36,682 bases of DNA, from the IMG/VR virus record IMGVR_UViG_2545824713_000010; one strand, 5' to 3'. This DNA comes from a virus. Lineage: Duplodnaviria > Heunggongvirae > Uroviricota > Caudoviricetes. Below, piece after piece: positions 1 through 35,686 of this stretch (its first letter is position 1; each line of letters begins with the position of its first letter). The notes below the pieces were generated by a model. The model saw only the letters and a program-made list of their open reading frames with translations. It ran no database searches and had not been told where the DNA came from. The translations under genes and the position numbers were made by a program.

Positions 1-1005
1 TTAATCCCCCGTGGACACTGCGTGGACACTCACGCCACCTTTCAGCGGATTAAGGGCCACCGCATCCTGCAGGTAATCCGGTGCAAAATGTGCATATGCC
101 ATTGTTTGCTGAATGGTTGCGTGGCCAAGAATCTTCTGAAGCGCAATAATGTTTCCTCCGTTCATCACAAAATGGCTGGCGAACGTATGCCGCAGCACAT
201 GTGCAGCCTGGCCTTTTGGTAAATCGGGCTTAACTCTTTTCAGCGCCAAGCAGAATTCCCGGTACTTCACCTCAAACAAGCCGCCTGTTTCTCTGGTTTT
301 GATCGCCTCACAAACTGCCTGCGAAATTGGCACTGTTCTCTTTCGGCCATTTTTGGTTTCAAGAAACGTTACACGGTTATGAACTATCTGTTCACCACGA
401 AGCTTACAAGCTTCACTCCAGCGCGCCCCTGTGCTTAAACACAAAAGCGCAACACGCCAGTAGTCGCCATCCAGTGTATCGAGCAATAGCGCTACTTCCT
501 TCTGGGACAGGAAAGCCATTTCTCGCGGGGATACATAAAGAATGGAGATCCCCCTTACCGGATGTTCTACATCCCAAAGGCCTATTCTTTTCAGAACAGT
601 AAACATGCCGGATAGTCGGTTCATGTACCTGTTAGCAGATGACGGTTTCAATCCAGCAGCTATCTTTTGAGAACGCCACGCGATAATTTTCAGCTTATCA
701 AGATCCACAGCCTGCATATCAGCGCCAAGCTCATTGATTATGTTGCACAGTTGTTTTCGGTCTTCTTCCGCCTTACGCCTGTGTTGACCGTGATACATCC
801 ACCACAACTCAAGCAAATCATTTAGCGTTCGGCGATCACGGTAGCCCTGTATATATTCCCGCTTTTCAGCGTTCGCCATGATGTAGCGTTCAGTGGCCAC
901 CGCTACCGATTTTTTGTCAAATACCTTACGCACGCGCTTTCCCTTGCGTCCGTTCGGCCTGATGTCCAGCAAATAACGACCATCTTCGAGCTTCTTAATT
1001 GACAT
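1..1005 (-). CDS. int: Tyrosine integrase, P2 Int-like
   Basis: ORF 1..1020(-); the likely true start is the internal MSIKKLEDGRY (P2 Int begins MAIKKLDDGRY from memory). C-terminal region carries conserved tyrosine-recombinase residues (ARWSEA, HVLRHTFASH, YAHF). Confidence 0.9.
   Translation of the reverse strand: MSIKKLEDGRYLLDIRPNGRKGKRVRKVFDKKSVAVATERYIMANAEKREYIQGYRDRRTLNDLLELWWMYHGQHRRKAEEDRKQLCNIINELGADMQAVDLDKLKIIAWRSQKIAAGLKPSSANRYMNRLSGMFTVLKRIGLWDVEHPVRGISILYVSPREMAFLSQKEVALLLDTLDGDYWRVALLCLSTGARWSEACKLRGEQIVHNRVTFLETKNGRKRTVPISQAVCEAIKTRETGGLFEVKYREFCLALKRVKPDLPKGQAAHVLRHTFASHFVMNGGNIIALQKILGHATIQQTMAYAHFAPDYLQDAVALNPLKGGVSVHAVSTGD
11..28. other. Putative att core copy (gtggacactgcgtggaca) overlapping the 3' end of int
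   Basis: 17 of 18 bases identical to 35502..35519 (gtggtcactgcgtggaca); lies in the last codons of int, where P2-type att cores sit. Confidence 0.45.
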
Positions 1006-1101
1006 TGCGAAGCCCTCCAATGAACCGCCCTACAATTTCTCCAGCCTCTTTCCAGCAATAATCAGACCAGACAAAGAGCAGGTCTAACCAGTTTTCTGGC
1101 C

Positions 1102-1422
1102 TTAGCGGGGTAATTTTTGGTTTGTTTCGGTTGAAACCTGATCGCCCTCCGAACCGAAGAAGCCATCAAGAGAGAGAGGCGGAGCAATCTGCCCCGTCGC
1201 AGCATTAGTTTGATTAAACATCACCCAATCCGAATACTTCCGAAAACGAGGATGATTCAAAATCAGGAGTAACGTTTCTCCAGGTATCATTCTTCCCAAT
1301 ATTTCATAATTTTTGAGATTGTATTGAGATACCCCTGTCACCTCTTCCATCTCTCTACGTGACAATCCCTCTGCCTCTCGAATCAGGCGAAGTTTTTCTC
1401 CAAGGCTTGATTTATGGATCAT
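1102..1422 (-). CDS. C: Immunity repressor, P2 C-type
   Basis: ORF 1102..1440(-); the track start is a GTG, the probable start is the ATG at MIHKSSLGEKLR. Similar to P2 C as recalled (RFRKYSDWVMFNQ and TGQIAPP versus QFTKYTLWFMTNQ and SGQIAP). Divergent from cox. Confidence 0.8.
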   Translation of the reverse strand: MIHKSSLGEKLRLIREAEGLSRREMEEVTGVSQYNLKNYEILGRMIPGETLLLILNHPRFRKYSDWVMFNQTNAATGQIAPPLSLDGFFGSEGDQVSTETNQKLPR

Positions 1423-1537
1423 ATGTGATCTAAACTCCACGCTATTGGGTTACATGTGATACAAAGCATTCAAATAGCCAAAATAAGCCTATATAAGCTA
1501 TTTTGGGCCATTTGGACGAATTAAGGAGATTACCACA
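1419..1537. promoter_or_regulatory. C/cox divergent switch region with direct repeats (catatgtgatc at 1420..1430, tacatgtgata at 1451..1461)
   Basis: Intergenic region between divergent repressor and cox; P2 C binds direct repeats overlapping Pe. Exact operator and promoter positions not determined. Confidence 0.35.
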
Positions 1538-1825
1538 ATGAGCGAATCAGAGCTTGAGGGGTTCATTCAGGTAGCACCATATCCACTTGAAGCGGTGCCA
1601 TATCAACTATTTGCCAAGATGATTGGTCGCAAAGAATCAACCGTCAGAACCATGATTGACGCTGCAAAGTTACCAACGATTGACTTTGTGAAACCAGGTT
1701 CAGTGAAGACGCGAGCATCAGAAAACTGGGTATATCTGCCAGCATTTAACGCAGGTATGCGCAAAGCGTTTTTTGATCAGCCGAAAGAACGCCGCGATGC
1801 ATGGTTGTTGTGGCTGGGGCTTTAA
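1538..1825 (+). CDS. cox: Cox excisionase/transcriptional regulator
   Basis: 95 aa; motifs AVPYQLFAKMIGRKESTVRTMID, NWVYLPAFN and AWLLWLGL match P2 Cox as recalled; RBS aaggag upstream. Confidence 0.85.
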   Translation: MSESELEGFIQVAPYPLEAVPYQLFAKMIGRKESTVRTMIDAAKLPTIDFVKPGSVKTRASENWVYLPAFNAGMRKAFFDQPKERRDAWLLWLGL

Positions 1826-1831
1826 TCATAA

Positions 1832-2038
1832 ATGACCAGCAATATCACCAGCGCCATTTTGGATCTTGTATTCCTAGAAGTGAGTGTAATAGCGATTTAT
1901 CTGCTTAGCAAGCTAACAGGACAAAAAGAACGCTTTATTGTTCTCAACGTTCATTACCTCGCCGCTTATGCCAGAGGTCTTTTTCCGATCACCATTGGTG
2001 CGGTGCTCATGGCGTTTGTTATTTGGCTCATCGGGTAG
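1832..2038 (+). CDS. Small hydrophobic protein (P2 orf78 position)
   Basis: 68-aa ORF directly after cox with two predicted hydrophobic segments; positional only. Confidence 0.4.
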   Translation: MTSNITSAILDLVFLEVSVIAIYLLSKLTGQKERFIVLNVHYLAAYARGLFPITIGAVLMAFVIWLIG

Positions 2039-2049
2039 AGGCACGAAAA

Positions 2050-2508
2050 ATGAATAAGCAACAGCGAAATGGCAAGCCCCATAACACGGGATTTCGTCGC
2101 AATTACTTTGAAAATGGGCGTTATGCCGGGGAAGTAAATAGGTACGGAGTTTTTGACATGAAGCAACAGTGCAATTCTTCACAGCAACGCTTCCGCAACG
2201 GGGAGGAACGCCATGCTAACCGTTTCGCTACCAGTACATCGCGTAGCAACTATCGCTACAGCCTGAGCGAAACACACGCCACACCTGATGGCCATCCCGT
2301 AAAACAAATTGGTGAACACACCTGGCTGATTGAGAAAGCTGGAATCGTGGTTCACAGATGCCCGCACAACCCATTTACCGGAAACCGCATTTTTGCTCTG
2401 AGCAACGGCGACAATCAGTTTGGGCAGGATTTCACATTGTACGAAGCGCTACGCACGGTTGATCGTCTGCTGCGCGGACAGAATTTCATTAAACAGGCTG
2501 ATTTATAA
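2050..2508 (+). CDS. Early-operon protein in the P2 gene B position (putative replication accessory protein)
   Basis: ORF 2023..2508; ATG at 2050 has the better RBS (agagg). Assignment is positional; sequence not confidently recognised. Confidence 0.5.
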   Translation: MNKQQRNGKPHNTGFRRNYFENGRYAGEVNRYGVFDMKQQCNSSQQRFRNGEERHANRFATSTSRSNYRYSLSETHATPDGHPVKQIGEHTWLIEKAGIVVHRCPHNPFTGNRIFALSNGDNQFGQDFTLYEALRTVDRLLRGQNFIKQADL

Positions 2509-2518
2509 CAGGTGCTTT

Positions 2519-2797
2519 ATGACCAAAGAGCATGCACAAGGTGTATTTATCCGTTTTATTGATTTTCGCGGTGAACTGTTATTACGCGCATCAGCTATTG
2601 ATGGAGTCGTCCCATCAGAAAAAAATGCAGCTACTTACGTTTATCTGAACGGCACGCGCCTGACCGTAGAACTTCCGTACCAGACTGTACACGAAATCAT
2701 TAGCGAAGCTGAAAAAGCACGTAATATTGATGGCGATAAACCCTATATCGAAATTATCTGCATGGATTCAGAAGCTGAAATTCAGAAAGCAGATTAA
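2519..2797 (+). CDS. Hypothetical early protein
   Basis: Internal ATG of ORF 2420..2797 with RBS aggtg; about 92 aa; co-oriented in the early operon. Confidence 0.5.
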   Translation: MTKEHAQGVFIRFIDFRGELLLRASAIDGVVPSEKNAATYVYLNGTRLTVELPYQTVHEIISEAEKARNIDGDKPYIEIICMDSEAEIQKAD

Positions 2798-2808
2798 AGG
2801 ACGTTGCG

Positions 2809-3051
2809 ATGGGCAAAGAATATAAAACTCTCATTAACAAAGCACTTGAGCGTTTTTATTTTCGCTTAAGTGCATCAGGCGCGCATGCTGAACGTGCAGC
2901 CCGTGACTCATTGACCAGGGCAATCCGGAGTCTGTATGACGTGGCTTTTTACGCTGATGATCTGGATGCACTTAACGAACTTTCCGAGCTGATCTGTGCC
3001 GCAGAATGCGGGGAACATATTGAACCGTATAAGCTAGGGAATATCGCATGA
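2809..3051 (+). CDS. Hypothetical early protein
   Basis: 80-aa ORF with RBS aagga upstream. Confidence 0.5.
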   Translation: MGKEYKTLINKALERFYFRLSASGAHAERAARDSLTRAIRSLYDVAFYADDLDALNELSELICAAECGEHIEPYKLGNIA

Positions 3052-3161
3052 GTATATTTATCTCATGGCTTGTTCTGATTATTTCGGTGGCCTGCGCCAT
3101 TGGGATTATGCGAATTATTAATTCAGTGAAAAAGATTGAACGCTTTTTCACTGGCGAATAA
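3048..3161 (+). CDS. Possible 37-aa membrane peptide (MSIFISWLVLIISVACAIGIMRIINSVKKIERFFTGE)
   Basis: ATGA start/stop overlap with the preceding ORF; single hydrophobic helix; below the ORF-track size cutoff, found by reading the sequence. Confidence 0.3.
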   Translation: MSIFISWLVLIISVACAIGIMRIINSVKKIERFFTGE

Positions 3162-3247
3162 CAGCGCAAATAAAACCACAGGTTAAATAAGAAAATGTAA
3201 AAACAATCCGCATTCGCGGAGGTATTCGCACACGCCAAGGAGGCGTA

Positions 3248-3451
3248 ATGGCAATTAAGCATTTTCCTGTCGTTCGTTTTACCTCCAGAGGACGTGAATA
3301 CGAAGTCGACGAACGCCTGATTACCACAATCGACAAACACCGTTCGGAAAAGGATGCACACCACATCTACCTCACTGACGGCACTTACTTCTGCGCCACC
3401 AACGTGGCGCGGGTGAATCTTATCCGACAGGTACAGGAGCCACGCAGATGA
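3248..3451 (+). CDS. Hypothetical early protein
   Basis: 67-aa ORF with strong RBS aaggagg. Confidence 0.55.
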   Translation: MAIKHFPVVRFTSRGREYEVDERLITTIDKHRSEKDAHHIYLTDGTYFCATNVARVNLIRQVQEPRR

Positions 3452-4010: not shown

Positions 4011-4332
4011 GAAACCAGAACATGCACACACAAAAAAACCGCTTGCCATGCCGCAATCAGCCAGGTTACATTTCCGCTGCACCTCACAAAACGGGTGCCG
4101 GGTTTCGCAGCCTGCTGACAAACATAGCGCACAACCGCGCCAGCGGTTTTTTTGTGCGTACTGTATCGCCACGTTTTTTTCGCACACGAATTATGGCGGG
4201 GCGTACGGGGCCGACTTCGGTCGGGCCGGGTTCTATGTTTGCCGGTACTGCGAACCTCGTACGTCTCGCCACCCACAGTTTCGCAGCTCTGGATGGTGAG
4301 TTTTCAAAACTTACACACATAGAGGCCACACC

Positions 4333-4563: not shown

Positions 4564-4635
4564 TTCCTGTTCCGGGCCTTTCCTGCACCTTGCGGCGGGA
4601 GGCCTTCGCACATCTGTAACAAGAGGATTGCCGCA

Positions 4636-5001: not shown

Positions 5002-5007
5002 ATCAGT

Positions 5008-7830
5008 ATGACGACAGAGTACATCAGGGACTGGCAACAACCGCGCCACGCAGTGGGGCGTGAAGGAACGGGGATCCCCGCACCTGAATCCGCGCTTTCC
5101 TCCTGGCTGGATGCCTACCGGGCAGAGAACGAGCGCCGACAGGAAAAGGCTGATGCGGCGTTCTCCGCCACGCCGCTGGGCAACCTGATTAATAAAAGCC
5201 TGGATGCACAGGAAAAACAGGACAAAACCATCACACTGGCAGGAGACGCCAGAAAGCAGGCACGCGGCGCGGTGGATGAAGCCATGGCCTCGCTGCGCCT
5301 GCTGCCGTCCTATCTGCGCGATCCGCTTATTCGCCACCTCTCCTTCCTGCGCAAAAAACAGGAATCTGACCGCCAGAAAGGTAAAAAGAACCAGCAGGCG
5401 GAACGCTATGCACGCGGAACCCTGCGCAAAATATTCGAACGTCTGGATCGCACTGACGGACGCTGGCTGACACCGGGTTATCGCTCCCTTGCCGGACGCG
5501 AACGCCTGGACGATTTGCTTTACCTGCCGCAGCTCAACAAACACCAGATACAGACGCTGGCCACCATGACGGCGGCGATGTTCAGCAGCACCTTCGAAAA
5601 ACTCTGCGATGGCTTTGGCGCGACCGATGGCGAACTGACCATGGATGTAACGCTGAAGACGTATCAGATGCTGGCCCGCATGGCGTTACACCTGCACATC
5701 ATGCCTCCACATTATGACGCACTGACAACAGATAAAGACCGGAGGAACGAACCGGACACGGAGCTGCTGCCGGGCGCAGTCCTTCGCCTGACCTGTGCGG
5801 AATGGTGGAAACGCAAACTGTGGCTGTTACGTTGCGAGTGGAGAGAAGAACAACTCCGCGCCGCCTGTCTGGTTTCCAGAAAAACATCGCCCTATCTGAG
5901 CCAGGACGCATTAAGCGAGTTTCGCGCACAGCGCGAGAAAACACGCGATTTCCTGAAAAGTTTCATGCTGGAAAATGAAGACGGGTTCACGATTGATCTC
6001 GAGACGGTGTATTACGCGGGAGTAAGTAACCCGGTTCACCGTAAGGCAGAAATGATGGCCACCATGAAGGGGCTGGAACTTCTGGCCGAAGCCCGTGGCG
6101 ACAGAGCGGTGTTTCTGACTGTCACCTGCCCGTCAAAATACCACGCAACAACGGAGAACGGTCATCCGAATCCCAAATGGAACGGGGCCACCATGCGCGA
6201 CTCCAGCGATTACCTGGTTAACACGTTTTTTGCGGCGGTCCGCAAAAAACTGAACCGCGACGGTCTTCGCTGGTATGGCATCCGCACGGTGGAGCCTCAC
6301 CATGACGGCACTGTGCACTGGCATATGATGGTCTTTGCACATCCGGACGAGATTGAAACCATCGTGTCCCACGTCTGCGATATTGCCATTCAGGAAGACC
6401 GCCACGAGCTGGGCGATGACATAACTCCGCGTTTTAAAGCGGAGTACGTCGACGGCTCAAAAGGCACGCCAACCAGCTACATCGCCACCTACATCGGAAA
6501 GAACCTGGACAGCCGCGCCGTGGATGGTATCGACCCGAAAACGGGCAAGCCACGCGTTGACCACGAAACCGGAAAATCAATGGCCGAGAGCGTGGAGCGC
6601 GCCATCGGCTGGGCGCGCCTTCACCGGGTCCGCCAGTTCCAGTTCTTTGGCATCCCCTCCCGTCAGGTGTGGCGTGAACTGCGCCGCCTTGCCAGCCAGA
6701 TGGCACGCAACCCGGAAGGCCCGCAACGGCTGAAGGATGACGCAATGGATGCAGTGCTCGCTGCCGCTGATGCCGGGTGTTTTGCCTCCTACATTGAAAA
6801 ACAGGGCGGCGTACTTGTTCCACGCAAAGACTACCTGATTCGCACCGCCTACGACCTCGCAGATGAGCTGAACGATTACGGCGAACAGAGCGTACAGATT
6901 TACGGGATCTGGTCACCACTCATCGGGGAGTCTTCCCGTGTGTGCACACATCCGGATAACTGGAAGCTGGTAAGACGTAAACCGGAAGCGGAAGACAGCG
7001 CCCGCGAAAATGGTTTTGACCTTCAGGGCGGTCCTGCCGCCCCTTGGACTCGTGGCAATAACTGTCCCCGTGTACAGGAAACAGGCAACAGCGGGACAGA
7101 ACAGTCGAAAGAACGGCCAGCACCGTGGCCGCAGCTTCCTGACGGCGTTGAAGTGAACGAATGGATGCGCTCACTGAAACGGCACGAACGCCGGGCGCTG
7201 ATGCGTTCGCTTCGTGACAAACAGGCAAAAAACAGCAGTGATGAAATGCAGAGCTGGACACAGAGCCGCAAACAGCAGCGGCCTTTGCCTGATAACCACG
7301 AATTACTCGCTAAAGAATGGCGGGAGTCTGCCGAATCTCTCGGCCTGCATATCGGTGAACAGCAGACGCAGCACCTGCTACGGGGCGGCAGCCTGTACGT
7401 TGACGGCAGCATCATTGCACCGCAGGGATATGAAATTGTACGCAAACCGGATACCCGCCCGGACAGCCGAATCACGCAGCTCTGGCAGCACCTGAGCCGT
7501 AATCACGGCGTAAGCAGCACGGAGATCCGCCATAACCCGGTCGCCAGCTATCTGGCACAGCTGGGGGCATCAGACCCCGAAGCCGCCGCACGCCTGGCAT
7601 CCGCACTTCAGCAGGATCAGAACACCATGAAAACACCCGTTACCGTGCTTTCTGACATGCTGCGCGCCATCCGCGACGCAGAGCACGCACAGAGAATCAG
7701 TGAAACCACTGAACGCGCCAGCCGCAAAGCAGACCTGCTGCAGGGTGGCCTGACCAGTGGAAACAAAAAACAGACAGAAACGGGACTCACGAATCCCGTA
7801 AATGAGCAAAAAACGCGCAGCGATATATGA
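5008..7830 (+). CDS. A: Replication initiation endonuclease, P2 gpA family (rolling-circle initiator), with a long C-terminal extension
   Basis: 940 aa; HUH-like motif TVHWHMMVFAHPDE and paired tyrosines in YIATYIGKN are typical of the gpA nickase; position matches P2 A. Confidence 0.85.
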   Translation: MTTEYIRDWQQPRHAVGREGTGIPAPESALSSWLDAYRAENERRQEKADAAFSATPLGNLINKSLDAQEKQDKTITLAGDARKQARGAVDEAMASLRLLPSYLRDPLIRHLSFLRKKQESDRQKGKKNQQAERYARGTLRKIFERLDRTDGRWLTPGYRSLAGRERLDDLLYLPQLNKHQIQTLATMTAAMFSSTFEKLCDGFGATDGELTMDVTLKTYQMLARMALHLHIMPPHYDALTTDKDRRNEPDTELLPGAVLRLTCAEWWKRKLWLLRCEWREEQLRAACLVSRKTSPYLSQDALSEFRAQREKTRDFLKSFMLENEDGFTIDLETVYYAGVSNPVHRKAEMMATMKGLELLAEARGDRAVFLTVTCPSKYHATTENGHPNPKWNGATMRDSSDYLVNTFFAAVRKKLNRDGLRWYGIRTVEPHHDGTVHWHMMVFAHPDEIETIVSHVCDIAIQEDRHELGDDITPRFKAEYVDGSKGTPTSYIATYIGKNLDSRAVDGIDPKTGKPRVDHETGKSMAESVERAIGWARLHRVRQFQFFGIPSRQVWRELRRLASQMARNPEGPQRLKDDAMDAVLAAADAGCFASYIEKQGGVLVPRKDYLIRTAYDLADELNDYGEQSVQIYGIWSPLIGESSRVCTHPDNWKLVRRKPEAEDSARENGFDLQGGPAAPWTRGNNCPRVQETGNSGTEQSKERPAPWPQLPDGVEVNEWMRSLKRHERRALMRSLRDKQAKNSSDEMQSWTQSRKQQRPLPDNHELLAKEWRESAESLGLHIGEQQTQHLLRGGSLYVDGSIIAPQGYEIVRKPDTRPDSRITQLWQHLSRNHGVSSTEIRHNPVASYLAQLGASDPEAAARLASALQQDQNTMKTPVTVLSDMLRAIRDAEHAQRISETTERASRKADLLQGGLTSGNKKQTETGLTNPVNEQKTRSDI

Positions 7831-7878: not shown

Positions 7879-7906
7879 TTAATTAATCAACATAAGGAAA
7901 AGCGAC

Positions 7907-8866
7907 ATGAAAATTTGTATCGACGACGGCTCCACCAACATCAAGCTGGCATGGACTGAGAACGGCGAACGCCGCAACGCCATCAGCCCGAACAGCTTCA
8001 AGTCGGAATGGTCTGCGCCGTTCGGTGGCACGCAGCCCGCGAACTACATGCTTGATGGCGTGCGCTATGGTTTTGATCCGGTCAGCGATCGCTTTGTCCA
8101 GACGACCGACACGCAATACCAGTACAGTGATGTGAATGTCATTGCCATTCATCACGCGCTGGTCAAATCAGGCATCACGCCACAGGAGGTGGATGTGGTT
8201 GTCACCCTGCCACTGAGCGAGTATTTCGACACAAACGCACAGCCGGACATAGCCAACATCAACCGCAAAAAAGCGAACGTTATGCGCCCGGTGGAGTACC
8301 AGAACGGCGAAGCATTCACTATCCGTAACGTGCGGGTTATGCCTGAATCCATTCCGGCTGGCTTTAAGGCACTGGCTGACATGAGTCCGTTTGAATCCCT
8401 GCTGATTGTGGATTTGGGCGGAACCACGCTGGATGTGGCAAAGGTTCAGGGGCAGCTGGCAGGTATCAGCCAGGTGTTTTGCGATCCACACGTAGGCGTT
8501 TCCCTGATGGCTGATGCCGTGCTGTCGGTGATGGCCACTAACGGTATGCGTACCAGTCACCACATCGCCAATACCATTATTGAGCACCGTCACGATGAAG
8601 CCTGGCTGCGCCAGCACATTCACAATGACGCGCATTACAACAGCCTGATGGCGGTTATTCGTGAAAAGGAGGAGACACTGAAACAACGAGTGATCCGCGC
8701 GCTGGCGGGTTTTTCCGGTTACGGGCGGGTGATGGTTGTCGGTGGAGGGGCGGAGATTGTGGCACCCGCTATCCGCGAAGCCTGCGGAGTTAATGCGACT
8801 TTCATCACGGACGGGGTGCCACATTTTGCTCTGGTTAATGGGCTGTACGCAATGAACAAGGAGTAA
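7907..8866 (+). CDS. parM: ParM/StbA-family actin-like ATPase
   Basis: 319 aa; N-terminus MKICIDDGSTNIKLAW closely matches plasmid R1 ParM/StbA as recalled (FIDDGSTNIKLQW), and YSDVNVIAIHHAL resembles the R1 WQYSDVNVVAVHHAL region; length equals ParM; RBS aagga. Confidence 0.8.
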   Translation: MKICIDDGSTNIKLAWTENGERRNAISPNSFKSEWSAPFGGTQPANYMLDGVRYGFDPVSDRFVQTTDTQYQYSDVNVIAIHHALVKSGITPQEVDVVVTLPLSEYFDTNAQPDIANINRKKANVMRPVEYQNGEAFTIRNVRVMPESIPAGFKALADMSPFESLLIVDLGGTTLDVAKVQGQLAGISQVFCDPHVGVSLMADAVLSVMATNGMRTSHHIANTIIEHRHDEAWLRQHIHNDAHYNSLMAVIREKEETLKQRVIRALAGFSGYGRVMVVGGGAEIVAPAIREACGVNATFITDGVPHFALVNGLYAMNKE

Positions 8867-8870: not shown

Positions 8871-9182
8871 ATGACGACACCAACCAGAAGAATAAGTTTC
8901 TATCTGAAGCCAGCTGCCGTCAAGAACGAAGGAGAAGCATGCGCCTGGCTGGACAGCCTTACACCAGAAGCCCGCAAAAGCGGCCAACGCGTGGCTTTTC
9001 TGGCCGGGCTGGCACTTCTGAAGACGAATCCGGCAGAGGCTTACCGACTGGCCGCATGGGCTGATGATGAGATGTTACCTGTGACACAAATCAGCTCAAA
9101 AAAGTTTGAAGCACAGTCTGCACCAGTGGCTAAGATAACCAGCCAGATGGCTGGGAATATCCGGGCGTTATTTCCTGAGTAA
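8871..9182 (+). CDS. parR: ParR-like ribbon-helix-helix adaptor
   Basis: 103 aa directly after parM. RISFYLKP and LDSLTPEARKSGQRVAFLAGLAL parallel R1 ParR (RTIAFKLNP, LDSIPQGERSRLNRAALTAGLAL) as recalled from memory. Confidence 0.55.
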   Translation: MTTPTRRISFYLKPAAVKNEGEACAWLDSLTPEARKSGQRVAFLAGLALLKTNPAEAYRLAAWADDEMLPVTQISSKKFEAQSAPVAKITSQMAGNIRALFPE

Positions 9183-21511: not shown

Positions 21512-23794
21512 ATGAGTACCACAACACGAAAATTTAAAACCGTTATCACCGATACGGGTGCAAAAAAATTAGCTCAGGCAGCCGCGCCAGATGGTAAGCC
21601 TGTCCGCCTGACTCATATGGCCGTGGGCGACGGTGGCGGCACGTTGCCCACACCAGACAGTAAGCAGACCCGTCTGGTGCATGAGGTGTGGCGACACACT
21701 GTTAATCGCGTCATCCTGGACGCAACACATCAGAACCGCATTATTGCGGAGCTGGTTATTCCTCCTGAAACGGGCGGATTCTGGATCCGGGAAATTGGTG
21801 TATTTGATGAGCACGGCGATTTAATCGCGGTGGGCAATACTGCCGAAAGTTACAAGCCAGCCGTTGCCGAAGGGTCCGGTCGTGCACAAACGTTTCGCAC
21901 CATTCTGACCGTATCCAGCACTGCCACCGTGGCGCTTACCGTGGATAACACCATGGTGATGGCCACAGTGGATTACGTGGATGACAAACTGAAAGAGCAT
22001 GAACGGTCACGACATCACCCGGACGCCTCGCTGACCGCAAAAGGCTTTGTTCAACTCAGTAGCGCCACTAACAGCGTGTCTGAAACGCAGGCTGCAACGC
22101 CGAAAGCAGTAAAGGCAGCATATGACCTGGCTAATGGCAAATACACCGCACAGGACGCTACCACTGCGCGGAAAGGGATAGTTCAGCTCAGTAGCGCCAC
22201 CAACAGCACGTCTGAAACGCAGGCTGCAACGCCGAAAGCAGTAAAGACCGCGTATGATCTTGCTAACGGTAAATATACTGCGCAGGATGCCAGCACGACG
22301 CGAAAAGGCCTTGTCCAGCTCAGTAGCGCCACCAACAGCACGTCTGAAGCGCAGGCTGCAACGCCGAAAGCAGTAAAGGCCGCGTATGACCTTGCTAGCG
22401 CAAAATATACCGCTCAGGACGCCACGACGACACAAAAAGGGATAGTCCAGCTCAGTAGTGCCACCAACAGCACGTCTGAAACACTGGCCGCGACACCGAA
22501 AGCGGTTAAGGCGGTAATGGATGAAACGAACAAGAAAGCGCCTTTAAACAGTCCTGCGCTGACCGGAACGCCAACAACGCCAACTGCGCCAAAAGGGACT
22601 AATAATACTCAGATCGCAAGCACGGCTTATGTGATGGCCGCGATTGCCGCACTTGTAGACTCGTCGCCTGACGCACTGAATACGCTGAACGAGCTGGCGG
22701 CGGCGCTGGGCAACGACCCGAATTTTGCGACCACCATGACTAAAGCGCTTGCGGGTAAGCAACCGAAAGATGCCACCCTGACGGCGCTGGCCGGGCTTGC
22801 TACTGCGGCAGACAAGTTTCCGTATTTTACGGGGAATGATGTCGCCAGCCTGGCAACTCTGACAAAAGTCGGGCGGGATATTCTTGCGAAATCGACCGTT
22901 GCCGCTGTTATCGAATACCTCGGTTTACAGGAAATGGTAAACAGGGCCAGGAACGCGGTGCAAAAGAATGGCGATACCTTGTCCGGTGGGCTTACTTTTG
23001 CAAACGACTCAATCCTTGCCTGGATTCGAAATACTGACTGGGCAAAGATTGGTTTTAAAAATGATGCTGACAGCGATACTGATTCATTCATGTGGTTTGA
23101 AACAGGCGACAACGGCAATGAATATTTCAAATGGAGAAGCCGCCAGGGCACCACAACAAAAGACCTGATGACGCTGAAATTGAATGCACTAAATATTCTG
23201 GTTAATGCCGTCATTAATGGCAGTCTTGGAGTTGGTACAACGAATGCGTTAGGTGGTAGCTCAATTGTTCTTGGTGATAATGATACCGGATTTAAACAGA
23301 ATGGTGATGGTATTCTGGATGTTTACGCTAATAGTCAGCGAGTATTCCGCTTTCAGAATGGAGTTGCTATTGCTTTTAAAAACATTCAGGCAGGTGATAG
23401 TAAAAAGTTCTCGCTATCCAGCTCCAACACCTCCACAAAGAATGCAACGTTTAATTTATGGGGTGCTTCAACCCGTCCAGTAGTTGCAGAGTTAGGCGAT
23501 GAGGCAGGATGGCATTTCTATAGCCAGCGAAATACAGATAACTCGGTAATATTTTCTGTTAACGGTCAGATACAGCCCAGCAACTGGGGGAATTTTGATT
23601 CACGCTATGTAAAAGATGTTCGCCTGGGTACGCGTGTTGTTCAATTGATGGCGCGTGGTGGTCGTTATGAAAAAGCCGGACACGCAATTACCGGATTAAG
23701 AATCATTGGTGAAGTAGATGGCGATGATGAAGCCATCTTCAGACCAATACAAAAATACATCAATGGCACATGGTATAACGTCGCACAGGTGTAA
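21512..23794 (+). CDS. H: Tail fibre protein, P2 gpH-like, with constant N-terminal part and invertible C-terminal receptor-binding part
   Basis: 760 aa; four tandem 43-aa repeats; crossover site inside the gene at 22908..22933; C-terminus ends INGTWYNVAQV, like the alternative segment. Confidence 0.9.
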   Translation: MSTTTRKFKTVITDTGAKKLAQAAAPDGKPVRLTHMAVGDGGGTLPTPDSKQTRLVHEVWRHTVNRVILDATHQNRIIAELVIPPETGGFWIREIGVFDEHGDLIAVGNTAESYKPAVAEGSGRAQTFRTILTVSSTATVALTVDNTMVMATVDYVDDKLKEHERSRHHPDASLTAKGFVQLSSATNSVSETQAATPKAVKAAYDLANGKYTAQDATTARKGIVQLSSATNSTSETQAATPKAVKTAYDLANGKYTAQDASTTRKGLVQLSSATNSTSEAQAATPKAVKAAYDLASAKYTAQDATTTQKGIVQLSSATNSTSETLAATPKAVKAVMDETNKKAPLNSPALTGTPTTPTAPKGTNNTQIASTAYVMAAIAALVDSSPDALNTLNELAAALGNDPNFATTMTKALAGKQPKDATLTALAGLATAADKFPYFTGNDVASLATLTKVGRDILAKSTVAAVIEYLGLQEMVNRARNAVQKNGDTLSGGLTFANDSILAWIRNTDWAKIGFKNDADSDTDSFMWFETGDNGNEYFKWRSRQGTTTKDLMTLKLNALNILVNAVINGSLGVGTTNALGGSSIVLGDNDTGFKQNGDGILDVYANSQRVFRFQNGVAIAFKNIQAGDSKKFSLSSSNTSTKNATFNLWGASTRPVVAELGDEAGWHFYSQRNTDNSVIFSVNGQIQPSNWGNFDSRYVKDVRLGTRVVQLMARGGRYEKAGHAITGLRIIGEVDGDDEAIFRPIQKYINGTWYNVAQV
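22042..22525 (+). repeat. Four tandem ~129-bp coding repeats (KG.VQLSSATNS.SETQAATPKAVKAAYDLANGKYTAQDA)
   Basis: Repeats start near 22042, 22175, 22304 and 22436; typical phage tail-fibre repeat. Confidence 0.75.
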
Positions 23795-24325
23795 ATGATG
23801 CAGCATTTAAAAAATATTAAGTCAGGAAATCCAAAAACAAAAGAGCAATATCAGCTAACAAAGAATTTTGATGTTATCTGGTTATATACAGAAGACGGTA
23901 AAAACTGGTATGAGGAAGTGAAAAACTTTCAGCCAGACACAATAAAGATTGTTTACGATGCAAATAATATTATTGTCGCCATCACTAAAGATGCCTCCAC
24001 GCTTAACCCTGAAGGTTTTAGCGTCGTTGAGGTTCCCGATATTACAGCCAACCGCCGCGCTGATGATTCAGGAAAGTGGATGTTTAAGGATGGAGCTGTA
24101 GTTAAACGGATTTATACGGCAGACGAACAGCAACAACAGGCCGAATCACAAAAGGCCGCGTTGATTTCCGAAGCTGAATCAGTCATCCAGCCGCTGGAAC
24201 GCGCTGTCAGGCTGAATATGGCAACAGACGAGGAACGCACACGACTGGAAGCATGGGAACGCTACAGCGTTCTGGTCAGCCGTGTGGATACGGCAAATCC
24301 TGAATGGCCACAAAAGCCTGAATAA
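23795..24325 (+). CDS. G: Tail fibre assembly chaperone, P2 gpG-like
   Basis: 176 aa (P2 G is 175 aa); conserved N-terminal half shared with the inverted paralogue. Confidence 0.85.
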
Positions 24326-24353: not shown

Positions 24354-24887
24354 TCATTCTGGTTGTTCTGGAAACGTTACTGGCAGGCTGGAGGTGTCTG
24401 TGGATTCGACCTTCTGCGCATAGAGCATCCACTCGGTTAATTTTTGTTTATTCTCGTTGGAAATGATACCCAGCCGTAGCTGTGAGTCCCATAGCTGGGT
24501 TTTATCCCTGACGAGCTGTAGCAGGCTTTGCTTTTCATTTTCCGCTTGTTGCCTCTGCTCTTCCTCGGTATAAGTTCGCTTTATCACTACGCCATCTTTG
24601 AACATCCATTTCCCCGAAATATCAGCCCGGCGATTTGCTGTAATATCAGGTAATTCAACGACGCTTGCACCCTCTGGATTAATTGCTGAAACATCCTTTT
24701 CAATACAAATAATAACGCCGTTATGGTCATAGACCATTTTCAAAGTGTCTGGCTGGAAATTCTTTTGTTCCTCATACCAGTTTTTTCCATCATCTGAATA
24801 AAGCCATTTGATGTTAAATTGCTTTGTTAGCTGGTATTGCTCTTTTGTTTTAGGGTTGCCAGCAGTAATGTTTTTTAAGTGCATCAT
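24354..24887 (-). CDS. Alternative tail fibre assembly chaperone (G', Mu U'-like)
   Basis: 177 aa; N-terminal half near-identical to G ([29 protein letters not shown]), C-terminal half divergent. Confidence 0.8.
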   Translation of the reverse strand: MMHLKNITAGNPKTKEQYQLTKQFNIKWLYSDDGKNWYEEQKNFQPDTLKMVYDHNGVIICIEKDVSAINPEGASVVELPDITANRRADISGKWMFKDGVVIKRTYTEEEQRQQAENEKQSLLQLVRDKTQLWDSQLRLGIISNENKQKLTEWMLYAQKVESTDTSSLPVTFPEQPE

Positions 24888-24889: not shown

Positions 24890-25834
24890 TTAAATACTCC
24901 CCGCGTTATACCACGTCCCATTAATGCAATACTGAATTGGCCTTGCCTGAGTTGTATCAATTAATTCATCACGGTTTCCGTTAACTGAACCCGTAACGAC
25001 ATAACCTGACCTGTCAGACCAGCCGGGACCATTCCATGTCTGAACAGATGACAGACCGCCAAGGCGAATACCTGTAATAAACCTTGAGTTACATTCTGCC
25101 TGCGTATATGCTCCAACATCTCCCGCAGAGGGTTTGCGGGTTGTGGTGTAAAACTCTGACCAGTCAGCTTCAAAGCCATAACCATCTCGCGCTGAACGAT
25201 AATAAATACCGCCGTTCTTATAATTCACACGGAACTGAACCGCCGGGCAACTCCCCGCATTCATATTAAAGTGAAGAATCAATGTTGACGCTCCACTAAT
25301 AGTCGCATTATAAACGCCGCTATTTGAGTTCCATCCAACAGCTTTGTCATTTCCAACAGTGCTTCCTGTCTGCCCTAAAGCAAATGCAGGCTGCTGGTTT
25401 TTCGTGTTGTAGTCTCTTCGCCAGCCAGGAGCATAAGCATTACCATGATTAATATAGGTGAATTGAGCGTTAGTAATTCCGCCACCGCTGGATGTACTCG
25501 GCGTAGTAACGCGTATGGTCATTGCGCCGCGAGTGCCAATAACTTCCACCACAGCACCTGCAAGACAAATATTTCCGCAACCTGTATCTGTAATGACCTT
25601 ATTGTTTGCATAAGCCCATGAGCCTTTGCACATCCAGTAAGGATGGTTAAATGCCCCCTGACTCTCCAGCCACGAAATGAATTGTGCGGTTGTCCAGGTC
25701 TGACTATCGCCACCAATATTCAGCCATGCGCTATATGCGCGGCAGGCACCAATATTTTTGGTGAAGGTATCTTTTCCTGGAATATCTGCGCCGTTCTGTT
25801 TTTTCTGTAATGCGCCAGAAGCCTGATTTACCGT
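24890..25834 (-). CDS. Alternative tail-fibre C-terminal segment (Hv'), no own start; expressed only after inversion fuses it to the H constant part
   Basis: Open frame continuous from the right crossover site to the stop at 24890 (track ORF 24890..25633); ends QYCINGTWYNAGSI, parallel to the H C-terminus. Confidence 0.7.
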   Translation of the reverse strand, partial: TVNQASGALQKKQNGADIPGKDTFTKNIGACRAYSAWLNIGGDSQTWTTAQFISWLESQGAFNHPYWMCKGSWAYANNKVITDTGCGNICLAGAVVEVIGTRGAMTIRVTTPSTSSGGGITNAQFTYINHGNAYAPGWRRDYNTKNQQPAFALGQTGSTVGNDKAVGWNSNSGVYNATISGASTLILHFNMNAGSCPAVQFRVNYKNGGIYYRSARDGYGFEADWSEFYTTTRKPSAGDVGAYTQAECNSRFITGIRLGGLSSVQTWNGPGWSDRSGYVVTGSVNGNRDELIDTTQARPIQYCINGTWYNAGSI

Positions 25835-25914
25835 TTCCTGTAAACCGAGGTTTTAGATAATGGCCGTTTCTGGCCTGCATGGCATGATTTGCGCTTTTGG
25901 ACGGGAGATTCAGT

Positions 25915-26505
25915 GTGCTGATTGGCTATGTAAGGGTATCAACAAATGACCAGAATACAGACCTGCAACGAAACGCTCTTGTTTGTGCAGGATGTGAACA
26001 AATATTTGAAGATAAATTAAGCGGGACAAAGACTGACCGACCGGGATTAAAACGCGCTTTAAAGCGCCTTCAACAAGGTGACACGCTGGTTGTCTGGAAA
26101 CTGGATCGCCTCGGGCGAAGCATGAAACATCTGATTTCTCTCGTCGGGGAACTACGGGAGCGAGGGATTAATTTTCGCAGTCTGACCGACAGCATAGATA
26201 CATCTTCTCCAATGGGGCGTTTTTTCTTCCACGTGATGGGTGCCCTGGCTGAAATGGAACGTGAATTAATTGTTGAACGTACACTGGCCGGACTGGCGGC
26301 AGCGCGCGCACGGGGGCGCACAGGCGGACGTCGACCGAAGCTGACAAAAGAACAGCATGAGCAAATAGCAAGGCTGATTAAAAACGGTCACGACAGAAAA
26401 CAACTGGCAATAATTTACAGCATTGGTATATCGACAATTTATCGTTACCACCCCGCAGGAGAATCAAGTGGAACAATTGAGAAGAGTAAACAAAATAACC
26501 GCTAA
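25915..26505 (+). CDS. Serine DNA invertase, Hin/Gin/Cin/Pin family
   Basis: GTG start gives MLIGYVRVSTNDQNTDLQRNAL, strongly matching e14 Pin / Hin as recalled; catalytic-serine motif VRVST and a C-terminal HTH. Confidence 0.85.
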   Translation: MLIGYVRVSTNDQNTDLQRNALVCAGCEQIFEDKLSGTKTDRPGLKRALKRLQQGDTLVVWKLDRLGRSMKHLISLVGELRERGINFRSLTDSIDTSSPMGRFFFHVMGALAEMERELIVERTLAGLAAARARGRTGGRRPKLTKEQHEQIARLIKNGHDRKQLAIIYSIGISTIYRYHPAGESSGTIEKSKQNNR

Positions 26506-27028: not shown

Positions 27029-27034
27029 GACTCC

Positions 27035-30358: not shown

Positions 30359-30412
30359 CAGGAAACTCCTTTCAGTCAGAGGCGACGCACTGCGCCGCCT
30401 GCATATTACTTA

Positions 30413-32109: not shown

Positions 32110-32266
32110 AGCTTCAGCCCCTTGTATCCGTTAAATGATTCGGCAACAATCATCACCCACCACGCGCGTAATCTCACCCCCTGCGCCGTTCTCCCGCCAC
32201 GGCGACAACAAAAAGCAGTAACCCCCTCCGCACGCACATGCGACCATGCCGCACAGGGAGGGAAAG

Positions 32267-33376: not shown

Positions 33377-33418
33377 AGAACTTAGAATAGCGGCAGCACC
33401 ACGTTAAGGGAGGTCGCT

Positions 33419-33679
33419 ATGTTCCGTTGTCCGCTTTGTGGCGCATCTGCCCGTATCCGCACCAGTCGTCCGGAAAATGATTCAAACACCGTGCGGCAAA
33501 AGTATTACCAGTGTAACAACCTGGAATGCGGCGTATGCTTCTCAACACTGGAAGCCTTCCATAAATTCACATCGAAACACGCCTCCGGCGTTCACTCATC
33601 AGAAGGTATTCCGTGGCATGAGCTGCCAGCTTCACACAGGGGAAACAATCAGATGAGTTTGCCTTTACCTCAGAATTAA
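33419..33679 (+). CDS. ogr: Ogr/Delta-type zinc-finger late-gene activator
   Basis: MFRCPLCGA...YYQCNNLECG gives a C-x2-C...C-x4-C zinc motif matching P2 Ogr as recalled (MFHCPLC...YHQCQNVNC). Confidence 0.8.
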   Translation: MFRCPLCGASARIRTSRPENDSNTVRQKYYQCNNLECGVCFSTLEAFHKFTSKHASGVHSSEGIPWHELPASHRGNNQMSLPLPQN

Positions 33680-33767
33680 CAGGCAGAATTGCCGGAGTAA
33701 CAAAAAAGCGATAGATTACGTGCGGGTGCCTTTCGGCTGATGGTCGGAGGGAATACCCGAAGGCCAG

Positions 33768-33953
33768 ATGTGGAAAGGCCCCGAGTCAACTTTAACGTTA
33801 ACCCGAGGCCCTAACCATCTACCCTTAGCAAGTGATAGGTTAGCGCCTCCCCGAAAAAGGAGCAAGCGCTATGTCGCAAAAATCGCTTACGGCCATCACG
33901 TTCTGCGTGACGGCAATCCTCATCATCTGGATGCTGCACGGTTCGCTGTGTGA
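33768..33953 (+). CDS. Possible mok-like overlapping reading frame of the hok-like locus
   Basis: 61-aa ORF in a different frame that overlaps the hok-like start, the arrangement seen for mok/hok; weak evidence. Confidence 0.3.
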   Translation: MWKGPESTLTLTRGPNHLPLASDRLAPPRKRSKRYVAKIAYGHHVLRDGNPHHLDAARFAV

Positions 33954-34011
33954 AATACGGATGAGCTTCTGGGGAGCGGAGTTTGCGGCGTTCTTACAGT
34001 GTAAGCAGTAA
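33871..34011 (+). CDS. Hok/Gef-family type I toxin-like small membrane protein (46 aa)
   Basis: MSQKSLTAITFCVTAILIIWMLHGSLCEIRMSFWGAEFAAFLQCKQ: a hydrophobic helix then SLCEIR and EFAAF, matching Hok (KSLCEIR...EVAAF) as recalled; RBS aaggag; below the ORF-track cutoff. Confidence 0.6.
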   Translation: MSQKSLTAITFCVTAILIIWMLHGSLCEIRMSFWGAEFAAFLQCKQ

Positions 34012-34020
34012 GGAAACCGC

Positions 34021-34042
34021 GACGGGGGAGTAATCCCCCGTC
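34021..34042 (+). terminator. Stable hairpin after the hok-like stop (gacggggga gtaa tcccccgtc)
   Basis: Perfect 9-bp GC stem immediately 3' of the toxin ORF; no clear U-tract. Confidence 0.4.
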
Positions 34043-34188
34043 AATCAGTTGCCGGGATAAGGTCGATAAGGCATCCTGTCTCACTCTATACCAGCTAATC
34101 AATTGACACATATCAATAAAAAGCCTGATAAAATCAAAATATTTTGTTACAAATGTCAGCTAGTAGAGGGCCAAAGGAGGCAGATTAT

Positions 34189-34521
34189 ATGGCATTAATC
34201 AAATGTCCTGAATGCCAGAAAGAGGTGATCGATTCAGTATTGTCTTGCCCTGCTTGTGGCAAACAACTGAAAAATCTTAAACGCTCATTTTTTGGAGAAC
34301 TCATTAAGTGTTTTTTTATATTATTTAATATTTTTATAATCTACACGATTTGTATTGGGCTAAGAGAGGTGGGTGAAATAATAAACAACGCCACATCCGA
34401 TGTCGAAAAAGCCGGTACAGTTATTGGTACGGGCTTAGGTTTAATTGCTATTGGAGGCTTATGGGTTATTGGCAATATCATTATCGGAAATTTAGTATTT
34501 CTTACTAAACCAAAGGGATAA
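34189..34521 (+). CDS. Zinc-ribbon membrane protein (CPEC...CPAC then two TM segments)
   Basis: ATG with RBS aaggagg; AT-rich gene; the N-terminal C-x2-C-x13-C-x2-C is followed by hydrophobic and Gly-rich helices. Confidence 0.55.
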   Translation: MALIKCPECQKEVIDSVLSCPACGKQLKNLKRSFFGELIKCFFILFNIFIIYTICIGLREVGEIINNATSDVEKAGTVIGTGLGLIAIGGLWVIGNIIIGNLVFLTKPKG

Positions 34522-34525
34522 CAAA

Positions 34526-35419
34526 ATGAAAAATGTGATTATTTCTATAGGCGCATCATTTATATCAATTAGTGTGCTACCTGCTCACGCAGCAACTGAG
34601 CATAATAACTTTAAGTCATCACTCCAGTGCCGAGCAATAGAAAATAATAAAGAAAGACTTTCTTGTTATGATAAGTCAATACAACCGACTCGAACGACAG
34701 TTGCTGAAAAATTCGAAAGCAGAGATCAATGCCCTGATGAGAAAGATGATGACAGACGTTTATCTTGTTATGACCGTTTTTTTTCTCCAACATTTACTCC
34801 GCCTGTAAGCTCAAAATCTAAAGTGAAACAGCTAGTAACAACAGAGACTCAGCAACCAAATCTTTCTGAGATATCTAAATGTCGAGCAGAAAACGATAAA
34901 GAAACTAGAGTAAACTGCTACGATAAACTATTTTCACAGGAAAAAGCTACGCAATCTAAATCAAAATTAGAGAAAGCCACAGACTCAGGAAAATGGCACA
35001 CATCCATTACTACATCGCCAATTGATGATTCGAAAAATGTAATTTTATCGTTAGAAAGTGATGATTATATAAGAACTCCATTTGGAGAAGCGGTTACCCC
35101 TACTCTGTTTATAGCTTGCCGAGAAAAGAAAACCGAAGTATTTCTTAATTGGGATGTATATTTAGGCCTTGAACAAACCAGCATGCTGTATCGCCTTGAT
35201 AAACAGAAAGCAGTTGAGCGAAACTGGCTAGTATCTACAGATACAAAGGCTGTTTTTTATAAAGGCAATGACATTAACTTCATCAGAAAACTAGCCAACT
35301 CAAACAAAATGTATGCAAGAATAACCCCTTATAATGAAAGCCCTGTAAGTGCAACTTTCAATTTAAACGGCCTGTCAACCACGCTAAAACCGCTTCAAGA
35401 AGCCTGTAACTGGAAATAG
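34526..35419 (+). CDS. Secreted/periplasmic protein with three Cys-pair repeats (C-x9-11-R/V-x-CYD)
   Basis: N-terminal signal peptide ending AHA-ATE; repeats LQCRAIENNKERLSCYDK, QCPDEKDDDRRLSCYDR and KCRAENDKETRVNCYDK; AT-rich. Confidence 0.6.
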   Translation: MKNVIISIGASFISISVLPAHAATEHNNFKSSLQCRAIENNKERLSCYDKSIQPTRTTVAEKFESRDQCPDEKDDDRRLSCYDRFFSPTFTPPVSSKSKVKQLVTTETQQPNLSEISKCRAENDKETRVNCYDKLFSQEKATQSKSKLEKATDSGKWHTSITTSPIDDSKNVILSLESDDYIRTPFGEAVTPTLFIACREKKTEVFLNWDVYLGLEQTSMLYRLDKQKAVERNWLVSTDTKAVFYKGNDINFIRKLANSNKMYARITPYNESPVSATFNLNGLSTTLKPLQEACNWK

Positions 35420-35447
35420 TATAAATCATGCGGCTAAGCCACAATCA

Positions 35448-35487
35448 CAGATAACACAAAGCCCGTGAAAACGGGCTTTGTGTTATC
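35448..35487. terminator. 17-bp perfect inverted repeat hairpin (agataacacaaagcccg tgaaaa cgggctttgtgttatct)
   Basis: Read directly from the sequence; lies between the last cargo gene and the attR core. Confidence 0.5.
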
Positions 35488-35501
35488 TATAACTCGAAAA
35501 T

Positions 35502-35519
35502 GTGGTCACTGCGTGGACA
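35502..35519. other. Putative att core copy (gtggtcactgcgtggaca), right prophage boundary
   Basis: 17 of 18 identical to 11..28; phage-type genes stop here and a host-like gene follows. Confidence 0.45.
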
Positions 35520-35686
35520 TGCGCCGATACAAATCCTTTTATATCAAAAAGTTAAATCAACATCTTTTTCATCAACAAGGATTTTCACGTTTGTGTTACC
35601 TGTATGAGACGAGAGTTAACCGGACAAGTGTGCCATAATCTCGCGGCCAGGCATACTTGCGAAGATTTCAGGTATAAGGATACGTA

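Follow-up and report, generated by a model that had tools for sequence, protein, structure and literature searches.

Putative integrase arm-type sites and a crossover core within pdxB at the ends of a P2-like prophage

Genes and repeats at the prophage ends

The stretch of DNA analyzed here (the window; 36,682 nucleotides) contains a complete P2-like prophage that ends just before the host gene flk (35687-36682, + strand; assigned by alignment and annotation). The flk flank is widely shared, aligning in 5,420 of 5,426 genomes. At the left end, on the - strand, lies int (1-1005), which encodes a P2-type tyrosine integrase of 334 aa when read from its ATG (the mechanical open reading frame extends to 1020). 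Int contains the Pfam domains Phage_integrase and Int_N and is annotated as a phage integrase in a lysogen. Its identity to the Int proteins of phages PhiSM, P88_4B11, and PhiR44_2 is 98% (98.5% for PhiSM), and identities across PhiSM, P88_4B11, Chuche, and PhiR44_2 range from 96 to 98.5%. The adjacent - strand gene (1102-1422) is a candidate for the immunity repressor, a C-like helix-turn-helix (HTH) protein. Its Pfam HTH matches are all sub-threshold (HTH_19 scores 27.1 bits against a cutoff of 30.2), and it carries a helix-turn-helix annotation in a lysogen. On the + strand follows cox (1538-1825), a homologue of the excisionase and early repressor (Pfam Phage_Cox, E=1e-22). At the other end, the final core gene of the phage, ahead of the cargo, encodes an ogr/Delta late-gene activator (33419-33679, + strand; Pfam Ogr_Delta and annotation), and the last cargo gene specifies a VasI/TagO-like protein (34526-35419, + strand; Pfam VasI, E=1e-24, and annotation). 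No tRNA or tmRNA that could serve as an integration target is present within the window.

Beyond the cargo, a hairpin with a 17-bp stem (35450-35487, + strand) occupies the position of the P2 ogr/F-operon terminator. Its predicted RNA fold has a free energy of -29.9 kcal/mol; a scan for consensus terminators did not call it because the stem absorbs the T-run.

A nearly identical 18-mer is found close to each end, GTGGACACTGCGTGGACA at 11-28 and GTGGTCACTGCGTGGACA at 35502-35519, both on the + strand and differing by one mismatch. The original prediction had taken this pair to be the att core of a 35.5-kb prophage. As an observation the repeat is accurate and non-random: a search allowing up to 3 mismatches yields just these two sites in the window, while shuffled sequences give a mean of 0.03 matches, with two or more in 0 of 100 shuffles. 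Likewise, the pattern GTGGACA-N4-GTGGACA, allowing up to 2 mismatches on both strands, matches only at the same two places. The placement of the copies was also described correctly. The left one codes for the C-terminus of Int (the reverse complement of 1-30 reads ...SVHAVSTGD*), and the right one lies 3' of the last cargo gene and 5' of flk. It is the reading of the repeat as an att core that fails.

The crossover core and the pdxB attachment site

A three-way alignment of attL (from ATCC 43896), attB (from K-12), and attR (from the window) leaves a single block common to all three, the 20-bp sequence TTTTCATCAACAAGGATTTT. In the window this block lies at 35566-35585 (+ strand), where it forms the crossover region and the right boundary of the prophage. 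The switch between host and phage DNA is thus located at 35566-35585 in attR and at L001:2799-2818 in attL, and not at the 18-mers. At attR, TTTTCATCAACAAGGATTTT spans codons 2-8 of pdxB; together with a GTG start codon (35588-35586) it makes up a severed 5' stub of the host gene (35566-35588, - strand), as judged against K-12 pdxB. The stub translates as VKILVDE..., and the native pdxB promoter region has been left behind with it. Genomes with an empty pdxB-flk site in the listed sample all align only from window position 35566 on. The prophage extends over ~35.77-35.8 kb; an element of about this size ending just before flk was correctly recognized, but the 18-mer is not its boundary.

The left junction was located from lysogens, because no complete genome matches the whole window (the best match among complete E. 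coli genomes in the collection has 98% coverage at ~96% identity). The lysogens used are 99.9% identical to the window over positions 1-1500, the int region, and they indicate that the attL copy of TTTTCATCAACAAGGATTTT would lie ~182-201 bp to the left of window base 1. Since this junction falls outside the window, beyond int, the 18-mer at 11-28 is internal phage DNA. The same lysogens, together with the pdxB stub at attR, suggest that the left flank of the prophage is pdxB. Reading leftward from base 1, one would expect ~182 bp of phage P'-arm DNA (TAACCCTTTTTCAGTCTCTGACAATCTAAGGCTCC...), followed by TTTTCATCAACAAGGATTTT and by pdxB starting at codon 9. The sequence predicted for attP is ...AACATCT-TTTTCATCAACAAGGATTTT-TAACCC..., and that for attB ...AAGGCATA-TTTTCATCAACAAGGATTTT-CACGTTTG.... 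A search for a longer relevant direct repeat inside the window found none, the true attL copy being outside it.

Free phages carry the predicted attP. The rebuilt attP is present, unbroken, in the Xuanwuvirus P88_4B11 (92.8% identity) and in Chuche (95.8%), and the record of PhiR44_2 starts exactly after the core. On a plasmid, a remnant of the right end of the phage is identical through TTTTCATCAACAAGGAT and diverges inside the core. The core of P88_4B11 carries a natural variant (TTTTCCTC...). Among complete E. coli genomes the pdxB site is occupied in ~5.6% (pdxB-core-phage attL junction in 303 of 5,426 E. coli genomes).

The attP sequence is also that of the Citrobacter rodentium phage PhiSM, to which P88_4B11, Chuche, and PhiR44_2 are related. 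For PhiSM, RP-PCR and Sanger sequencing placed the integration site in E. coli K-12 at ATCCTTGTTGATGAAAA, in the pdxB 5' end (Magaziner et al. 2019, PMC6456863). Core bases 1-17, read on the opposite strand, give this sequence, so that the 17-bp PhiSM site falls inside the 20-bp block; the two reports differ in that 17 bp were given for PhiSM and 20 bp of identity are found here in E. coli. The PhiSM group further shares a phage-borne AAGGAG-N7-TTG that reads into pdxB. It differs in the rest of the genome, which is mosaic (~96% identity or less), with other cargo upstream of the P arm.

These junctions bear directly on the possibility that the 18-mer is a crossover core duplicated on integration, which would make the prophage run from 11 to 35519. 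The repeat is indeed direct and non-random and brackets nearly the whole prophage, and the attP of P2-like phages does adjoin the 3' end of int. However, the unoccupied K-12 pdxB-flk locus has no copy of it (best match 6/18 mismatches, in 6.1 kb), and host homology sets in only at 35566, 47 bp rightward of the repeat. Left of int, phage DNA continues for another 182 bp in the lysogens, and a different shared core comes next. Moreover, free phages hold both 18-mers ~275 bp apart, flanking the TTTTCATCAACAAGGATTTT core, and the experimentally mapped PhiSM integration is at the pdxB site (PMC6456863). An att-core role for the 18-mer, already ruled out by the comparison with the empty site, is scarcely credible.

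Putative arm-type sites of a P2-like integrase

P2-type arm sites have the consensus tgTGGaCa and are repeated in direct orientation to either side of the core (PMC3448106). Two direct matches to this consensus are found on each side of the core here, all four in the same direction. The putative P' arm, within the last int codons, has CGTGGACA at 10-17 and again at 21-28 (+ strand). The putative P arm, directly after the hairpin, has TGTGGTCA at 35501-35508 and CGTGGACA at 35512-35519 (+ strand). Both pairs have an 11-bp period, and this two-site, all-direct layout is identical in the window phage, P88_4B11, Chuche, P2, and Wphi.

The P2 record (GenBank AF063097) annotates the Int P arm, IHF, core, Cox, and Int P' arm as protein_bind features. 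The P2 arm sequences are TGTGGTCAatgTGTGGACG and TGTGGACActgTGTGGACA, the P' arm being inside the 3' end of int, and Wphi is arranged alike. The P arm of the window is near-identical to the Int-bound P2 P arm, TGTGGTCAatgTGTGGACG, and the P' arm corresponds in motif and position to the P2 "Int P' arm" feature and to its counterpart in Wphi. The positions also match those of the footprinted P2 sites: the P arm comes next after the terminator at the right end, a probable IHF site separates it from the core, and the P' arm falls in the 3' end of int. From the start of the first P-arm site to the core is 65 bp, compared with 59 bp in P2. The probable IHF site, TATCAAAAAGTTA (with a perfect WATCAANNNNTTR), is at 35542-35554 (+ strand), within DNA (AAATCCTTTTAT...) that is homologous to the region marked as IHF-footprinted in the P2 record. 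It was assigned from its position and its homology to P2, the IHF consensus not being enriched across the window (2 found vs. 1.2 expected). The Cox-box pattern TTAAA[GC]NCA has no match in the P' arm spacer, but it also has none in P2's own annotated Cox region and is thus an unreliable guide.

Further points of likeness to P2 are the heterobivalent tyrosine Int, 54% identical overall, and the cox and C genes adjoining int. However, the P2 core, AAAAAATAAGCCCGTGTAAGGGAGATT, is used at intergenic loc sites, whereas TTTTCATCAACAAGGATTTT is inside pdxB, and the distance from core to P' arm is ~211 bp here but ~115 bp in P2. The two integrases are 51% identical in the N-terminal arm-binding domain and 60% in the catalytic domain, but merely 31% in the core-binding domain, a distribution that would fit conserved arm sites combined with a different core. 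The more distant λ attP, in which the sites P1, P2, and P'1-P'3 are bound by the Int N-domain, offers a general parallel: arm sites far from the core are bridged by a bivalent Int with the aid of IHF bending, and the arms are split onto attL and attR after integration. λ is no close relative and differs in arm consensus, site number, spacing, and excisionase (Xis, vs. Cox here).

Alternatively, the two 18-mers might have no functional site in common, the left copy being kept for the Int C-terminus (SVHxVST) and the right one being coincidental or vestigial. It is true that SVHAVST is encoded by the left copy and that P2 Int terminates in SVHTVST. Yet the non-coding right copy is conserved in P88_4B11 and Chuche despite unrelated upstream cargo, the homology to these phages beginning ~8 bp before the P arm. 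It also nearly matches the P2 P arm and lies just as far from the core; the number of matches expected by chance is 0.03. A merely coincidental pair is thus highly improbable.

Another reading is that the repeats bind not Int but a different phage regulator, either Cox or the C repressor. In P2, Cox does bind inside the attP P' arm, and the annotated Cox footprint (24399-24472) reaches barely into the Int site of that arm (24470-24496). However, exactly these tandem repeats are annotated as Int sites on both arms in the P2 record, with Cox located between core and P' arm. Furthermore, the motif is common to P2, Wphi, and the window phage, whose annotated repressor proteins differ, and it tracks the conserved N-terminal domain of Int. 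P2 and Wphi are heteroimmune. Cox or C as the protein bound by the repeats is therefore very unlikely. Instead, the 18-mers are best read as putative integrase arm sites of a P2-like prophage, with binding expected from homology to P2; the whole explanation, arm sites together with a pdxB core, is given a probability of about 0.9. The repeat would thus belong to the integration machinery, as the original prediction supposed, although it does not mark the ends of the prophage.

The junctions, the core, the contiguous attP of free phages, and the P2 homology in sequence and position are direct observations; physical binding of Int and IHF to the predicted sites is inferred from homology. In the mechanism we propose, a P2-like (Peduoviridae, Xuanwuvirus-type) phage would insert into the first codons of pdxB by means of a heterobivalent tyrosine integrase, with strand exchange within the 20-bp identity block TTTTCATCAACAAGGATTTT. 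The attP would consist of a P arm ~65 bp before the core, an IHF site between the two, and a P' arm ~210 bp beyond the core, lying within the int 3' end. In the circular form of the phage, Int would occupy the arm sites with its N-terminal domain and the core with its core-binding and catalytic domains, while bending of the DNA by IHF would allow formation of an intasome that recombines attP with attB. Integration would then put the two arms at opposite ends of the prophage; thus, the motif seems to bracket it.

Consequences for pdxB and for prophage boundaries

The target, pdxB, is an essential-pathway gene (vitamin B6 synthesis), whose 5' end is repaired by a ribosome-binding site and start codon supplied by the phage. 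In a lysogen, pdxB is separated from its native promoter and start codon and lies directly downstream of, and co-oriented with, the C-int lysogenic genes of the prophage. A small phage-borne promoter for pdxB has been proposed in the literature. A promoter scan of the int-pdxB spacer gave a single weak site, downstream of the TTG start, which neither supports nor refutes this proposal; the interval from int to pdxB yielded no terminator. It is conceivable, though doubtful, that host B6 synthesis proceeds partly via read-through from the lysogenic promoter of the prophage and not solely from the small phage-borne promoter. If so, read-through would couple an essential host cofactor pathway to the state of a prophage in ~5% of E. 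coli genomes.

P2-type arm sites and the pdxB attB have both been published (the arm-type sites are not discussed in the PhiSM paper, PMC6456863), and the biology described here is ordinary; its value is as a correction. Taking the 18-mers as boundaries misplaces the right end of the prophage by ~50-65 bp and the left end by ~190-210 bp, and it hides the real target, the 5' end of pdxB. With the pdxB site used in such a share of complete E. coli genomes, it is important for prophage annotation to place the boundaries correctly. When direct repeats enclose a P2-like prophage, they can be integrase arm-type sites and not the crossover core.

Junctions and the att core

The original prediction took an 18-bp repeat as the probable att core of a prophage of ~35.5 kb. 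The repeat itself lies where it was described, as GTGGACACTGCGTGGACA at positions 11-28 and GTGGTCACTGCGTGGACA at 35502-35519, both on the + strand. The left copy falls within the 3' codons of int, a minus-strand gene whose product ends ...SVHAVSTGD*, and the right copy is situated between the last cargo gene (VasI/TagO-like, 34526-35419) and host flk (35687-36682). The window has no match beyond these 2 at up to 3 mismatches; shuffled sequence yields a mean of 0.03, with two matches in 0 of 100 shuffles.

Comparison with host genomes places the crossover elsewhere. The flk flank is matched in 5,420-5,426 of 5,426 complete E. coli genomes. Among the matches listed, those with an empty site (pdxB adjoining flk, as in K-12 MG1655) show no alignment left of window position 35566, which is 47 bp past the right-hand 18-mer. 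The loci used were the ATCC 43896 lysogen (L001), the empty K-12 locus (L002), and a lysogen right end (L003). A three-way alignment of attL from L001, attB from L002, and attR of the window reveals only one common block, TTTTCATCAACAAGGATTTT. This core is present at window 35566-35585 in attR, at L002:2501-2520 in attB, and at L001:2799-2818 in attL. The int region of L001 is 99.9% identical to the window, whose base 1 corresponds to L001:3001; the core and that base are 182 bp of phage DNA apart, and the attL core thus lies beyond the window. The 18-mer was not found in the 6.1-kb K-12 locus, where the nearest match has 6/18 mismatches. Thus, because the unoccupied locus has a different junction, with host homology beginning at 35566 and the shared block away from the 18-mer, the repeat is ruled out as the crossover core. 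The P2-like prophage stands, but its extent is corrected to ~35,767 bp, a value that includes one core copy and presumes a 182-bp spacer as in close lysogens.

Other genomes and a published mapping confirm the core independently. The free phage genomes P88_4B11 (92.8% identity) and Chuche (95.8%) carry, without a break, the attP predicted by joining phage right end, core, 182-bp spacer, and int 3' end, and the first base of the PhiR44_2 record is the base directly after the core. For PhiSM, random-primed PCR and Sanger sequencing in E. coli K-12 placed attP/attB at ATCCTTGTTGATGAAAA, a 17-mer in the pdxB 5' end (Magaziner et al. 2019, PMC6456863); its reverse complement equals bases 1-17 of the shared block. 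This attB is already in the literature, from a phage whose integrase is nearly identical. The pdxB-core-phage attL junction occurs in 303 of 5,426 genomes and the window-type attR junction in 224, a difference consistent with cargo that varies upstream of the P arm. On the ETEC plasmid LR883008.1, a remnant of the same phage right end agrees fully with the window up to and including TTTTCATCAACAAGGAT, diverges thereafter, and abuts a 5'-truncated topoisomerase gene; it looks like a degraded secondary-site insertion, resolved within the core. The remnant (1042-3190 of NZ_LR883008.1, 142 kb) carries ogr-hok-zinc ribbon-TagO-P arm-IHF-17 bp of core and is adjoined by a group II intron. Overall, the right-end segment is matched at nine plasmid places.

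The repeats as probable arm-type sites

Each 18-mer consists of two direct 8-mers 11 bp apart: TGTGGTCA at 35501 and CGTGGACA at 35512 on the P-arm side of the core, and CGTGGACA at both 10 and 21 on the P'-arm side. This tandem motif of 11-bp period has no further occurrence in the window. By analogy with P2, the 18-mers are best read as Int arm-type sites of attP. The experimentally defined binding features of the P2 record (AF063097) run terminator, Int P arm, IHF, Int attP core, Cox, and Int P' arm, with the P' arm within the int 3' end. The P2 arm features are TGTGGTCAatgTGTGGACG and TGTGGACActgTGTGGACA; those of Wphi, in equivalent positions, are TGTGGACGctaTGTGGACA and TGTGGACActaTGTGGACA. 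For P2-type arm sites the published consensus is tgTGGaCa, occurring as direct repeats to either side of the core (PMC3448106). Judged by sequence, the order in the window phage agrees: a strong hairpin closing the right-hand operon (35450-35487, -29.9 kcal/mol), the P arm (35501-35519), a predicted IHF site with the perfect consensus TATCAAAAAGTTA (35542-35554), contained in a AAATCCTTTTAT... stretch homologous to the P2 IHF region, and the core (35566-35585), whose start lies ~211 bp from the P' arm in the circular form. The first P-arm site begins 65 bp ahead of the core, versus 59 bp in P2, and the core-to-P' arm distance is ~100 bp greater than in P2. The Cox-site consensus used in the search had no match here and failed on P2 too.

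In Chuche, the preceding cargo is unrelated and homology sets in only ~8 bp ahead of the first P-arm repeat, which marks this repeat as the outer edge of the conserved functional attP. Window Int is 51% identical to P2 Int in the N-terminal (arm-binding) domain, 31% in the core-binding domain, and 60% in the catalytic domain, the pattern that would be expected for common arm sites with a different core. P2-type arm sites are already known from P2 footprinting and comparative work, and the window attP is a textbook example of the type.

Prophage gene content

The window holds a complete P2-like prophage, with int (Phage_integrase and Int_N), Cox, the gpA replication protein, portal, terminase, capsid and tail genes, and Ogr/Delta, with a small cargo block after it; a low-scoring protein annotated as a helix-turn-helix regulator is taken as the repressor. 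No tRNA or tmRNA was found in the window. Its integrase shares 54% identity with P2 Int and 96-98.5% with the counterparts in Citrobacter phage PhiSM, Escherichia phages PhiR44_2 and Chuche, and Xuanwuvirus P88_4B11. Within this group the prophage is a mosaic member, with no end-to-end match among the complete E. coli genomes searched. By annotation transferred from L003, the cargo after ogr (~33870-35419) comprises a Hok/Gef toxin, a zinc-ribbon protein (34144-34521), and the VasI/TagO-like protein (34526-35419); relatives differ at this place, Chuche carrying Com and a DNA methyltransferase.

Inverted repeats of 34 nt (22908-22941 and 25827-25860, 91% complementary) flank ~2.9 kb in which genes for the tail-fibre C-terminus and its assembly occur as two sets in opposite orientation (Caudo_TAP twice, gp37_C; 23795-24325 (+), 24354-24887 (-), 24890-25633 (-)). 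Together with the adjoining serine invertase (Resolvase and HTH_7, 25897-26505, +), this invertible segment is a Gin/Cin-type host-range switch. The tail-fibre gene (21512-23794) contains three to four tandem 132-bp (44-aa) repeats, Pfam Phage_fiber_2, at 22039-22510. Between gpA and the cos/portal region of this integrating prophage lies a partition module, ParM (StbA_N and ParM_N, 7907-8866, +) and Plasmid_stab_B (8871-9182, +), which either hints at a plasmid-like maintenance option or is a moron. Tandem early-region RNAs at 4079-4153 and 4189-4276 (+), matching Rfam isrK (65 bits) and C4 antisense RNA (83.5 bits), form a P1/P7-type c4 immunity/antirepressor-control module. The gpA protein (5008-7830) has 940 aa, with the Phage_GPA domain confined to residues 179-503; P2 gpA has ~760 aa, and the window protein appears to have long additional N- and C-terminal regions.

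Integration and its effect on pdxB

The junctions, the core, the contiguous attP, and the identity and placement of the motifs are shown by the sequence comparisons; for the steps of integration, P2 and lambda suggest a scheme. With the phage circular, the Int N-domains would bind the four arm-type repeats, and IHF would bend the P arm. The core-binding and catalytic domains would then engage the core and the identical attB in pdxB, and strand exchange within the 20-bp block would integrate the phage. The P arm would end up at attR and the P' arm at attL, which would be why the same 18-mer is seen near both ends of the lysogen. Excision would need Cox (gene 1538-1825) in addition.

The core spans pdxB codons 2-8. 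What remains at attR is a 14-codon stub, VKILVDEKDVDLTF*, that keeps the native promoter and GTG start together with 7 codons of the gene. At attL, a phage-borne AAGGAG-N7-TTG TCA GAG ACT GAA AAA GGG TTA is in frame with AAA ATC CTT..., giving the predicted product M-SETEKGL-KILVDENMPYA.... In the attL region of lysogens (L001:2685-2850, outside the window), PGAP passes over this start, which would give a 385-aa fusion, and annotates pdxB as 370 aa from the internal Met8, a systematic annotation inconsistency in ~300 genomes. Since int and pdxB have the same orientation, with no terminator-like site detected in the intervening DNA, a hypothetical read-through of pdxB from the lysogenic C-int transcript is possible. 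The phage-supplied pdxB start has already been described, and MG1655(PhiSM) keeps growing on minimal medium (Magaziner et al. 2019, PMC6456863).
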